From Candidatus Bathyarchaeota archaeon (GTDB taxonomy: Archaea > Thermoproteota > Bathyarchaeia > Bathyarchaeales > Bathycorpusculaceae), in contig CAWFFH010000003.1 of assembly GCA_963815095.1 (NCBI GenBank), forward strand, positions 1,088,001 to 1,152,000: a DNA stretch of 64,000 nucleotides, written 5' to 3'. Every line of letters begins with the position of its first letter. Within the stretch, counting starts at the first letter, position 1. Below, piece by piece: positions 8,940 to 12,720 of the stretch. A model generated the notes under the pieces. It saw only the letters and a list, made by a program, of their open reading frames with translations, made no database searches and was not told where the DNA came from. Both the position numbers and the translations under genes were made by a program.

Positions 8940-10568
8940 TTATTCGGTTGGAGCTGGATTGTAGCGGGAGAGGATGCCTCTTTTTATTTTGGGTTCTCTT
9001 GGCTTCCAGGCAGCTAAACGGGCTTTGAGTTCTTTGTCGGAAAGTTCCACTTTTAGAACGCGGTTTGGAATATCAATGGTTATTATGTCACCGTTTTTTA
9101 GAACTCCAATTGGTCCGCCATCGAAGGCTTCTGGAGCAACATGCCCTATGCTGCCTCCACGAGTAGCACCTGAGAAACGTCCATCCGTGATTAATGCAAC
9201 ACTTTCGCTAAGGCCCATGCCTGCGATAGTGGCGGTTGGAAACAGCATTTCAGGCATTCCAGGTCCACCCCTCGGTCCCTCATAGCGAATGACGACAACG
9301 TCACCAGCTTTGATTTGGTTGGCGCGGATAGCTGTTAGAGCTTCTTTCTCTGAATCGTAGACTTTTGCCGGACCTGTGTGTTTTTGCATCTTTGGTGAGA
9401 CGCCTGCGGTTTTTATTACTGATCCTTTAGGTGCGAGGTTGCCGGTTAAGATGGCGATGCCACCTTCCTTATGAACGGGGTTAGTGAGGCTGTGGATTAC
9501 TTCTCTGTCAAGTACCGCTGCGTTCTTGATGTTTTCGCCGACTGTTTTTCCTGTCACAGTTAGAACTTTTAGGGTGAGCAATGTTTTGAGTTCGTTCATG
9601 ACTGCTGGAACTCCGCCTGCAGCATCTAAGTCTTCAATTGCATATGTTCCGCTTGGAATCATACTGCATAGGTGGGGAACTTTTCGGCCGATTTCATCGA
9701 ATCTTGAGAGCGGAAGGATTAAGCCTGCTTCTTTAGCGATGGCTGGCAAGTGCAGAGTAGTATTGGTTGAACCCCCAAGTGCCATATCGACTGCGATGGT
9801 GTTTTCGAAAGCTTCCTTGGTTAAGATTTGTGATGGTTTGAGGTCGTCTTTGATTAGTTTGAGGATTTGTTTGCCTGTGGCTCTGGCTAACCGCACTTTG
9901 AAAGCGCTGTTTGCAAGAGAAGTTGCGCAGTAGGGCAAAGACATACCCAACGCTTCAGTTAAGCACGCCATTGTGTTGGCGGTGAACATGCCGCTGCAGC
10001 TCCCGCATCCGGGGCAGGCGTTTTCTTCCAGCTCGCACAGTTCTCCTTGCGTCATCTTTCCAGCAGCGACCTGACCGAGTGCTTCTGGCATTGAGGAATA
10101 ACTGATTTTTTTGCCGCGGTGGTGTCCTGCCGCCATTGGTCCACCCGTAACCATGATGGCGGGGATGTTCACTCGGGCAGCTGCCATAAGCATGCCTGGA
10201 GTAATTTTGTCGCAGTTCGAAATCATAACCAATCCATCTAAACTATGAGCTTGAAGCATAATCTCTACGGAATCAGCGATTATTTCGCGTGAAGGCAAGG
10301 AGTACCTCATTCCTTCATGTCCCATGGCGATGCCATCGCAAACGGCAATCGTGCTGAATTCAAACGGTGTACCACCAGCAGCTAAGATGCCCTCTTTCAC
10401 GGCCTCCCCAATGGTTCGGAGATGAATGTGCCCGGGAACGATGTTTGTGTAACTATTAGCAATACCAATTAACGGCTTTGCTATGTCATTGTCTTCTAAA
10501 CCCAACGATTTTAGGAGCGCTCGATGAGGAGCTTTCTCAGTTCCTTTCTTAATCTGGTCACTACGCAT
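8940..10568 (-). CDS. ilvD: Dihydroxy-acid dehydratase
   Basis: [45 protein letters not shown]; start placed at MRSD after GAGG. Confidence 0.95.
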
Positions 10569-10654
10569 ACATTTTGCCTCTGTGCAATCTATTGTCACCA
10601 ATAATTTTATATTTAAGCTTGACCCCTTGAAAATGAATGTGATTTAAATGGGGT

Positions 10655-12172
10655 ATTGCTTTATTCAACCACTTCCCTAAGTCTATAAAGTTTTTAGACA
10701 CTACCCTTCGTGATGGTGAACAAACACCCGGAGTCTCTCTTGTACCTGAGAATAAACTGCGTATAGCCCAGAGGCTGGATGAGCTTGGCGTCGATTTTAT
10801 CGAGGCCGGGTTCGCGGCGGTTTCGCAAGGCGAAATGGAATCTGTTGCCTTAATTGCTAAGCAGGGTCTTCGGGCGCAGGTGTTCAGTGCGGCAAGAGGT
10901 ACTAAAAACGACGTTGACGCTGTACTGAAAAGTGGAGCTTCAGGTATTGCGATGATTATTCCAACTTCCGATTTGCATATAGAGGTTAAACTGCGTAAGA
11001 CTCGTGAGCAAATCCTAACGGCAACTCATGACCTTGTAGCGTATGCTAAAGCTCATGGTTTAGCCGTTGAGCTTTTAGCTGAAGACGCAACCCGCTCAGA
11101 CTTCGAATACTTGACTAAAGTGTTTCTGACAGCAGTTGATGCTGGTGTGGATAGGGTTGTTCCATGCGACACCGTGGGGATTTTGACCCCGGAACGTGCG
11201 GCAGAGTTCTTTTCTAATCTCAAAAAAACCATAAAAGTTCCAGTTGCAGTGCATTGTCACAATGATTTTGGCATGGCAGTCGCCAACACCGTGGCTGCTT
11301 TAGGATCAGGCGCAGAGGAATGCCACTCAACTATCAACGGACTCGGCGAACGCGCAGGCAACGCAGCCTTAGAAGAAATAGTGATAACACTGAGGTCTCT
11401 CTACAAGATGGACCTGAACATCAAAACCGAACTGCTCTATGGCACATCCCAACTGGTTTCACGCCTAACAGGCGTTCATTTGCAACCCAACAAAGCCATA
11501 GTGGGAGAAAACGCCTTTACACACGAATCGGGAATCCACACTCAAGGTGTCCTCGCTAACCCGTTGACCTATGAGCCAATTGCTCCTGAACTGGTCGGGT
11601 GCCAAAGACGCATCGCAGCCGGAAAACACTCAGGTTCCAACGCTATACGCGCCGACCTCAACAATATGGGCATAAAGCCCACCGAATCACAATTCAAACA
11701 GATATTCCATCGTATAAAAGAACTCGGTGACAAGGGCAAAACCGTCATGGATGCCGATGTCCTAGCTATAGCTGAATCAGTCATGGGTTTGGGCGGAGAC
11801 AAACCGATTCAGTTGGAAGAAATGACCTACGTTGGTGGCGACAAAGTGACTTCAACCGCTTCAGTGCGCCTGAAACTTAATGGGAAAGTCGTTTGGGGCG
11901 CTGCTGTAGGTGTTGGTCCCGTGGATGCCGCCATAAATGCCGTGAAAGATGCTATTGCAGAGACTGAACCCATAACGCTGGAGCAATATAACGTTAAAGC
12001 TATTACAGGTGGAACAGACGCAATGGTTGAAGTTCTCGTTCACATGCGCAAAGGCAACCGAACAGTCACAGCATTGGGAGTCCGCGAAGACATCGTTAAA
12101 GCAAGCATGGAAGCTGTCTTAAGCGGCATGAACGTCCTAACAACCGATTACAACAACAAAAACCACCAATAG
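10655..12172 (+). CDS. cimA: (R)-citramalate synthase / LeuA-family protein with no canonical in-frame start (frame open from 10643; start coordinate is the in-frame ATT and is uncertain)
   Basis: Frame of the 10835 ORF extends upstream through [18 protein letters not shown] to TGA at 10640; SDLHI, EDATRSD, HCHNDFG resemble archaeal CimA. Confidence 0.75.
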
Positions 12173-12393
12173 CAAGCCTCCCTTTATTTTTATTCCAATT
12201 CTTACTGCAAGAGGTTAGGGTTAACTTTTTAATCTTTAACTTAATTTGGTTGTAGTAGTAGGTTGACTACCGCAAACGCTTTTAGAGCTAAAAAACGATG
12301 ATTTTAATGCGACTTGCCTTGAGTTGTAAGTCTCTTTTTAACGAAAAACACAATAATTGGTGGTTTTGTATGTTTTTGGTTGAAGGAATACAG

Positions 12394-12720
12394 ATGAAAA
12401 CTGAGTGCATATCCAAAAGGCGTCTCACGACTGCATGGAAAACATTGAGCGACAAGCCTCTGCCAAAAGTAAAAGCCTTCAGATTAAGCGACGACGACTT
12501 CAACACTGTCCTTCACCAACGTCATTGTATCGAGGATGATTTTCGAGAAATTGAGGAGTGGGGCGGGCTCCTCTCAACTAAGGGCACCGATGCCTGCGTT
12601 TTTAACGGCGACGAAAATGACGATGCAGAATTCATTATTCTGGTCAGGGAAAACTCCTATCACACTTTAGACGAAATTATCGTTCACGAATTATCACACA
12701 TCGCCCGCGGGGACCTCTAA
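12394..12720 (+). CDS. Small hypothetical protein with C-terminal HExxH motif
   Basis: EIIVHELSHIARG; purine-rich SD-like sequence before ATG 12394. Confidence 0.6.
   Translation: MKTECISKRRLTTAWKTLSDKPLPKVKAFRLSDDDFNTVLHQRHCIEDDFREIEEWGGLLSTKGTDACVFNGDENDDAEFIILVRENSYHTLDEIIVHELSHIARGDL

Follow-up and report, generated by a model that had tools for sequence, protein, structure and literature searches.

The window analysed here, a 64,000-nucleotide (nt) stretch of a 2.69-Mb, 98% complete Bathyarchaeia genome (G000; window G000:C3:1088001-1152000), carries a cimA-like gene for which we propose, with a probability of roughly 0.65, that its expression depends on a programmed +1 ribosomal frameshift, one that would sense the level of charged tRNA-Ile. 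The enzyme frame is open from 10643 to 12172, with an in-frame TGA at 10640-10642 and the stop codon at 12170-12172, and contains the catalytic motif DTTLRDGEQ at 10697-10723 (GAC at 10697). As an earlier reading of the bare sequence (the original prediction) had stated, this frame has no ATG, GTG or TTG between the TGA at 10640 and the motif; the first such codon is the ATG at 10835, well inside the catalytic domain. It had also described a short open reading frame (ORF), ATG AAT GTG ATT TAA (10633-10647), abutting a second one at 10648-10680, and both are indeed one base out of the enzyme frame. The second, hereafter the sensor mini-ORF, reads on the plus strand ATG GGG TAT TGC TTT ATT CAA CCA CTT CCC TAA, which defines frame 0. 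Within it, TTT (10660-10662) is the proposed P-site slip codon, where tRNA-Phe would move from UUU to UUA, and ATT (10663-10665), as read in frame 0, is the putative isoleucine sensor (or "specifier") codon. From the slip TTA (10661-10663) the +1 frame would continue with TTC at 10664 and run to 12172, encoding a synthase of the CimA/LeuA family of about 507 amino acids (aa).

The comparison behind this proposal covers a close orthologue set, formed by the best 80 of 553 relatives of the window locus, and 40 of the more distant 5′ regions, added from a class-wide draw in which the enzyme was matched in 317 of 401 genomes. The DTTLRDGEQ anchor was present in 119 of the 121 loci examined, with identities of 55-96%, and the orthologous ORFs are intact (about 505-510 codons) in assemblies made with different technologies. 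In 117 of the 119 anchored Bathyarchaeia loci, an ATG (108) or GTG (9) is offset by 1 mod 3 relative to the D codon and, in the frame that it sets, precedes TTT and ATT or ATC. The recurrence among orthologues that the original prediction had proposed as a check is thus found, and the arrangement is, as judged from these alignments, far beyond chance. No canonical start of the enzyme frame lies near in 83 of the 119 loci, and in the other 36 such codons are present at scattered positions.

The start belongs to a near-invariant cassette, ATG GGG TAT YGC TTT ATY, with almost no variation between positions -1 and +16 relative to the mini-ORF ATG. All 76 of the 76 aligned relatives share the sequence TTTAT without change, though it spans third positions of the enzyme frame. 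As positions 12 and 15, both third positions in that frame, never vary, leucine is always encoded by TTA (21% of genomic usage), and the enzyme-frame codon before it always ends in T. Position 17 is T or C only, a change that is synonymous in frame 0 (Ile) and would replace Phe by Ser in the enzyme frame. Such a constraint at the nucleotide level is not explainable by the enzyme frame. Insertions and deletions between the start and TTT comprise whole codons (3, 4, 6 or 7 codons; L087, L097 and L116). In two lineages (L061 and L113) the enzyme-frame "W" codon is TGA, so that the enzyme frame cannot be entered 5′ of the cassette. It is this comparison that shows the out-of-frame start and the invariant cassette.

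These data also decide among the recoding sites suggested previously. The general idea stands in that recoding is needed, its direction is +1, and a response to amino acid supply is the best reading of it, but the particular shift sites proposed are not conserved. The abutting upstream ATG-initiated ORF occurs in only 19 of 117 cassettes, and a shift at its ATT-TAA would be available only in those same 19. The CTT-CCC-TAA at the end of the mini-ORF cannot be the shift site because the frame-0 stop moves among relatives, leaving mini-ORFs of, for example, 6, 7, 8 or 10 codons within a range of 6 to 21. The conserved candidate is TTT-ATT (10660-10665), which was absent from the earlier proposals.

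Two loci depart from the rule. In L010 the cassette is intact and followed by one extra G (TTATTCGAACC in place of TTATTCAACC), which places the start at 2 mod 3 and is probably an assembly indel of that metagenome-assembled genome. In L098 the mini-ORF ATG has become CTG, frame 0 holds a TGA, and there is an in-frame TTG. An in-frame TTG start with GGTGAT upstream is shared by L098 and L104 (G043 and G101, of one genus), and this lineage looks like a return to ordinary initiation with a decaying cassette. Four further loci (L111, L118, L124 and L116) have variant cassettes (ATGGGTGATAGC..., ATG TTT AAA GAA GGT GAA TAT TTT ATT) that lack the run of four G; GGTGA would serve there as the internal Shine-Dalgarno (SD)-like element, and an enzyme-frame GTG is a possible alternative start.

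Besides the codons, two elements of the leader are expected to take part in the process. An SD-like GTGAT (10639-10643) precedes the mini-ORF ATG by 4 nt and is complementary to the 3′ end of the G000 16S rRNA (...GGAUCACCUCCU); an SD-like motif is found at -16 to -3 in 109 of 117 relatives, being GTGA in 73 and GAGG in 24. The second is the internal GGGGT (10650-10654), the last G of which is 6 nt from the slip codon. It can pair with the anti-SD sequence 3′-CUCCA-5′, one G·U pair included, and its natural variants (GAGGT, GGGTGAT, GGTGAT and AAGGTGA) are still complementary to the anti-SD. By contrast with the mini-ORF, the ORF at 10633-10647 is not conserved as such and merely holds the SD-like GTGAT. 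The length of the spacer 5′ of the cassette changes among relatives by non-multiples of three.

The same cassette, 18 nt long, was found before other branched-chain amino acid genes. Genomes G401-G404 contain 2-6 copies each, with ATY or GTY as the sixth codon, and a control search with the reversed pattern gave 0. The valine type is present in 68 of the 401 class genomes, 67 of which are among the 71 genomes of family f22. The genes downstream of these sister leaders encode valine-tRNA ligase (valS), the large subunit of acetolactate synthase, with an ilvN-like ORF behind it, or a threonine-dehydratase-like protein, and comparison shows a match between sensor codon and gene. The leaders of valS carry a valine sensor alone (GTY, 23/23). 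Among the 23 ilvB-like (ilvBN) leaders, 21 have a second mini-ORF, with Val and Ile as putative sensors in 9 and Val and Leu in 12 (MG-x-R-[I/F]-L), and the ilvA-like leader has Ile twice. For cimA, the codon is that for isoleucine (ATT or ATC) in 117 of 119 loci. The place of the slip codon is held by TTT in all other cassettes or, in the Leu type, by ATT. The A or G by which the Ile and Val types differ does not alter the amino acid in the +1 frame (UUA or UUG), and consequently only the frame-0 reading gives it a meaning.

The sister leaders are also informative about which frames are translated. We examined 48 cassette leaders outside cimA, and 47 leaders with a long downstream ORF were used for a frame test. 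In tandem leaders, the stop codon of the first mini-ORF lies 0 nt (18) or 3 nt (4) before the ATG of the second, in the same frame in 22 of 22 cases, which argues that frame 0 is translated. The +1 frame is open for 40-68 codons. In 39 of 47 leaders its stop is no more than 10 nt away from the downstream start, and in 46 the distance is at most 17 nt. Offsets typical of termination-reinitiation are the most common (ATGA-type overlaps in 18, stop-N-ATG in 12). Frames 0 and 2 end near the downstream start in 0 of 47 leaders, shuffled spacers have a mean probability of an open frame of 0.11, and 40 of 50 leaders lack a start codon within the +1 frame. Comparison thus shows that frame 0 and the +1 frame are both translated. 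The +1 peptides of the valS and ilvB leaders are not conserved, and bases 3-11 of the cassette are conserved there just as in cimA. Because these bases are kept even though the +1 peptide changes, the pattern is to be ascribed to the cassette rather than to the enzyme, which explains why it looks like coding sequence in cimA.

Searches for a wider use of the cassette had mostly negative outcomes. Leu-type cassettes were found only in ilvB leaders and none elsewhere. Sensors with a middle base other than U gave 17 matches in the 71 genomes of family f22, compared with 8 for the reversed control, and no context recurred among them. Of 255 other Thermoproteota genomes searched outside the class, none contained the exact 18-mer; diverged forms would escape such a search.

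We suggest the following course of events for the window gene. Ribosomes would initiate at the ATG that follows the SD-like motif (10648) and translate Met-Gly-Tyr-Cys-Phe in frame 0, until UUU (10660) occupies the P site and AUU (10663), a codon for Ile, the A site. If Ile-tRNA arrives, frame 0 would be continued and translation would end at the TAA at 10678, after 10 codons, producing no enzyme. If Ile-tRNA is scarce, the pause would be longer and peptidyl-tRNA-Phe could re-pair one base forward, on UUA (UUG or UUC in other cassettes). The internal GGGGU probably assists this slip and may hold or strain the ribosome. Reading from TTC (10664) onwards would then yield an enzyme that supplies threonine-independent isoleucine synthesis. 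In cimA the shifted frame would be fused directly to the enzyme, whereas in the sister leaders shifted ribosomes would be delivered to the next start codon. In ilvBN leaders, two sensors in one frame that share a common +1 frame would operate as an OR gate. We infer where the slip occurs, that it is shortage which leads to the shift, and what part the internal SD-like element plays. In its general form the proposal is that Bathyarchaeia possess a modular device in which the ribosome reads a specifier codon (SD, AUG GGG UAU YGY UUU, sensor), so that a shortage of charged tRNA-Ile, -Val or -Leu would cause a +1 frameshift, either into cimA or towards valS, ilvBN or ilvA through termination-reinitiation, with tandem cassettes as OR gates. 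For this extended version we see the balance tipping slightly in favour.

Several observations weigh against this interpretation. A slip from UUU to UUA or UUG would produce a purine-purine clash at the wobble position, and the internal SD-like element is 6 nt from the slip codon, compared with 3 nt in the release factor 2 gene (prfB), the slip codon of which is CUU. Bases 3-11 vary mostly at enzyme-frame third positions (G-[IV]-[AVTI]) and would, taken alone, suggest an earlier shift; for cimA considered by itself, a shift right after initiation is a possible, though less likely, explanation. In the 36 loci with a canonical enzyme-frame start nearby, ordinary initiation may contribute. The regulon-level evidence comes from family f22, while in the window's own family the cassette occurs only at cimA and as one orphan copy. 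A GC-rich hairpin of varying sequence, which follows the Val sensor after 0-4 nt in most valS and ilvB leaders, is absent from cimA. Finally, the evidence for a frameshift device is entirely comparative, and the counts overstate its independence because the compared genomes are relatives.

The most direct competitor of a shift at TTT-ATT is one that immediately follows initiation, through either a four-base start (AUG-N) or slippage of tRNA-Gly at GGG-U. Such a shift would be constitutive or of set ratio and would not sense amino acids, and its product would begin Met-Gly-Ile-Ala-Leu-Phe-Asn... The variation at positions 6 and 9 (GGT/GGA/GGG; ATT/ATC/ATA), with its conservative I/V and A/V/T/I changes, does resemble coding in the enzyme frame, GGG is the rarest Gly codon (10%), and skipping the base after the start codon would be compatible with every locus. 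However, the same bases are equally conserved in valS and ilvB leaders, where the +1 peptide is not. A shift at GGG-U, which the original prediction had also listed, lacks its site (GGG-U or AGG-U) in L087 (at codon 2), L097, L111, L116, L118 and L124. Moreover, the invariant TTTATY, the match between sixth codon and gene, and the abutting frame-0 stops of tandem leaders would all be left unexplained, and we regard this possibility as unlikely. It is still harder to accept that there is no frameshift, and that the enzyme starts at a non-canonical codon of its own frame (ATT at 10655 or similar) with the mini-ORF acting as a stalling regulatory upstream ORF. ATT, ATC and ATA can be counted as near-cognate starts, the mini-ORF extends across this site, and the scattered canonical starts of 36 of the 119 loci could be read in the same direction. 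Nevertheless, the codon at 10655 varies among ATT, ATC, ATA, GTT and GTC, with GTT or GTC in several lineages, and is never ATG or GTG in about 120 loci. As GGGGT abuts this codon, there is no SD at a usable distance from it. Conservation of the cassette is equal where the +1 peptide has no function, and in the 47 sister leaders the long +1 ORF without a start ends exactly at the start of the next gene, which requires entry from the mini-ORF. The suggestion of initiation at ATT 10655, made in the original prediction, is consequently quite improbable.

Correction at the RNA level, by editing or by transcriptional slippage on GGGG (10650-10653) or TTT, and a pseudogene or assembly artefact may be considered together. 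Short runs of G and T do exist, but known transcriptional slippage tracts are far longer than G4 or T3. The same arrangement is present in 117 of 119 independent assemblies, obtained by different technologies and with intact ORFs, which refutes the "extra G" that had been offered as a mundane alternative. In addition, the logic of a sensor codon would be meaningless at the RNA level. A short-read DNA contig of run X2, which may derive from the sample used for the assembly, spans 10558-10765 without differences or gaps and confirms GGGG; runs X1, X3 and X4 gave no sequence across the site. Explanations of this kind therefore retain hardly any credibility. The out-of-frame start is specific to this gene in G000: a scan for out-of-frame ATGs before long ORFs without a start gave 12 (+1) and 5 (+2) candidates. 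A genome-wide peculiarity of decoding was rejected, as all of these candidates except cimA had ordinary downstream starts. A missing or odd tRNA-Gly was likewise discarded, since the genome has tRNAs with each of the anticodons GCC, CCC and UCC, and their loops are normal.

The identity of the enzyme is relevant to the isoleucine codon. The protein belongs to the LeuA/CimA family (HMGL-like aldol-type synthases), as indicated by its catalytic motif and by full-length matches above curated cut-offs to NF002085 (635.4 bits, cut-off 517) and TIGR02090 (516.2 bits, cut-off 484.75). On the question of CimA versus isopropylmalate synthase, its match to TIGR00977 (267.6 bits) is under the cut-off of 450, and the database names of relatives are split between D-citramalate synthase (JGI) and 2-isopropylmalate synthase (NCBI). 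A second paralogue, with an ordinary start, is located in the ilv-leu operon. The isoleucine sensor codon, if it is one, fits the CimA identity. Nothing in G000 exceeds the cut-off of ilvA_1Cterm (best 100 bits, cut-off 379), and this, together with the divergent orientation of the gene with respect to the ilvD-ilvBN-leuCDB-leuA operon, fits an isoleucine-sensing logic.

The proposed device shares features with several known systems. It resembles the autoregulatory +1 frameshift of prfB, of which a 2016 review gives a general description (PMC5009743). In both, a short frame-0 ORF precedes a functional protein in the +1 frame that lacks its own start, and a G-rich internal SD-like element, of putative effect in cimA, is located upstream of the shift codon. 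Slow decoding in the A site triggers the shift in prfB and would do so in cimA, the shift being sensor and effector at once. They differ in that the A site of prfB holds UGA and awaits its own product, whereas in cimA it would hold a sense Ile codon (ATY) awaiting charged tRNA. The shift in cimA would not be at an in-frame stop, the frame-0 stop varying as described above. The slip codon and the SD gap differ as well (UUU instead of CUU, 6 instead of 3 nt), the host is an archaeon, and the Bathyarchaeia cassette forms a module that recurs with other sensor codons. In the +1 shift of the Ty1 type, a P-site tRNA slips on an xUU codon, and a permanently rare tRNA gives a set ratio. The likeness to this and to "hungry-codon" shifting lies in the xUU slip, the slow decoding of the next codon and the scarcity of its tRNA, but scarcity is permanent in Ty1, while the device proposed here would respond to starvation. 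For starvation-driven shifting at hungry codons, the review (Atkins et al., PMC5009743) states that "no examples are known" of use for functional trans-frame products.

Attenuation of the ilv, leu and pheL type also relies on a translated leader ORF with codons for the amino acid of the pathway, in which pausing reports charged tRNA, and the tandem sensing of Val, Ile and Leu for ilvBN has a parallel there. By contrast, the cimA device would use a single sensor codon rather than a run, and its output would be a change of reading frame. It has neither a terminator/antiterminator pair nor an enzyme start of its own, hairpins being found only in valS and ilvB leaders. As in T-boxes, one conserved cis element whose specifier triplet can be exchanged would regulate the gene of an aminoacyl-tRNA synthetase (valS) as well as biosynthetic genes, in each case by the cognate amino acid, although in Bathyarchaeia the triplet would be read by the ribosome and not through RNA-tRNA pairing, and there is no Stem I, T-box sequence or Rfam match. 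To our knowledge, T-boxes and leader-peptide attenuation have been described only in bacteria, and our literature search on amino-acid-responsive cis-regulation returned bacterial cases only. The course of shifted ribosomes through a spacer to the start of the main gene, as proposed for the valS and ilvB leaders, recalls ketolide-dependent frameshifting in ermC, as described in PMC5009743; there, however, the trigger is an antibiotic and the host a bacterium, and the cimA form is a direct fusion instead of a leader.

How archaea sense the level of charged tRNA at single genes is largely an open matter. A 2021 review of archaeal recoding (PMC8211752) lists one proven frameshift (fucA1, -1) and suggested cases in haloviruses and magnesium chelatase. 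A literature search, mostly limited to non-subscription sources and made without supplementary files, gave no description of such a frameshift system. If the proposal is true, it would represent the first natural regulatory use of hungry-codon frameshifting, an archaeal functional counterpart of T-boxes and attenuation, and the first case among archaea of a cellular +1 frameshift that is conserved; its confirmation would fill gaps in the knowledge of both archaeal recoding and productive starvation-driven frameshifting. Because the triplet would set the amino acid, the cassette would also be, if confirmed, a compact reprogrammable sensor.

There are consequences for annotation. A plain ORF finder cuts the window gene to 445 aa (10835-12172), with loss of the catalytic motif, and public gene calls of this enzyme (P0002-P0121) begin at NTG codons that happen to occur upstream, so that a number of them are translated through the TATA box. 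The misplaced starts are a systematic mis-annotation, and such truncated or extended calls may lead pathway reconstructions to mis-score isoleucine synthesis in this lineage of abundant, uncultured Bathyarchaeia of sediments and soils.

Upstream of the mini-ORF, the TATA-like element that had been noticed near 10606 is present as the nearly palindromic TTTTATATTT (10605-10614, plus strand), a putative promoter; a TATA-like hexamer begins 40-53 nt 5′ of the mini-ORF start in roughly 101 of the 117 relatives. The divergent ilvD (8940-10568, minus strand, assigned by the NCBIfam scan) is the first gene of ilvD-ilvB-ilvN-leuC-leuD-leuB-leuA-pheA and is mentioned for context only. The TATA-like box may also serve this gene. 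The ATG of ilvD (10568) and that of the mini-ORF (10648) flank the element at similar distances, about 38-42 nt, which suggests a shared bidirectional promoter.

With regard to RNA structure, no conserved element was detected in the window leader, which appears unstructured (z = +0.37), and Rfam gave 0 matches at E ≤ 1 in positions 10400-10950 of the window. In seven sister leaders, only two sub-threshold chance matches elsewhere were obtained. RNAalifold, applied to an ungapped alignment of 46 Val leaders, recovered only a pairing of GGG (3-5) with CCC (23-25) and missed the variable-loop hairpins of single sequences. The cassette GGG in columns 3-5 can pair with the CCC (23-25) of the 5′ arm of the following hairpin (GC in 43-46 of 46 sequences), and a possible alternative structure would involve the start region of the mini-ORF.

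The orphan Ile cassette of G000 lies outside the window (G000:C3:108705-108722, minus strand) and has a similar promoter-like upstream region. Its +1 frame comprises only 21 codons, no long ORF follows on that strand, and it faces the 3′ ends of two opposite-strand ORFs, one of 244 aa that resembles aspartate dehydrogenase by eye and one of 830 aa that resembles class-I aminoacyl-tRNA synthetases. Extra cassette copies similar to the orphan were seen in L181 and L159/L244. In L244 (G404), the +1 frame of the Ile cassette comprises 32 codons, and 5 nt separate its stop from the ATG that follows, the start of a 70-aa ORF; a 95-aa ORF comes next (region about 100-600 nt past the cassette), with a weak Gp49-like Pfam match below threshold (18.7 bits, cut-off 23.9). 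In the window, the synthase gene is directly followed by an ORF of 140 aa (12298-12720, plus strand) that has no NCBIfam match, and a similar ORF is found after the gene in L245.

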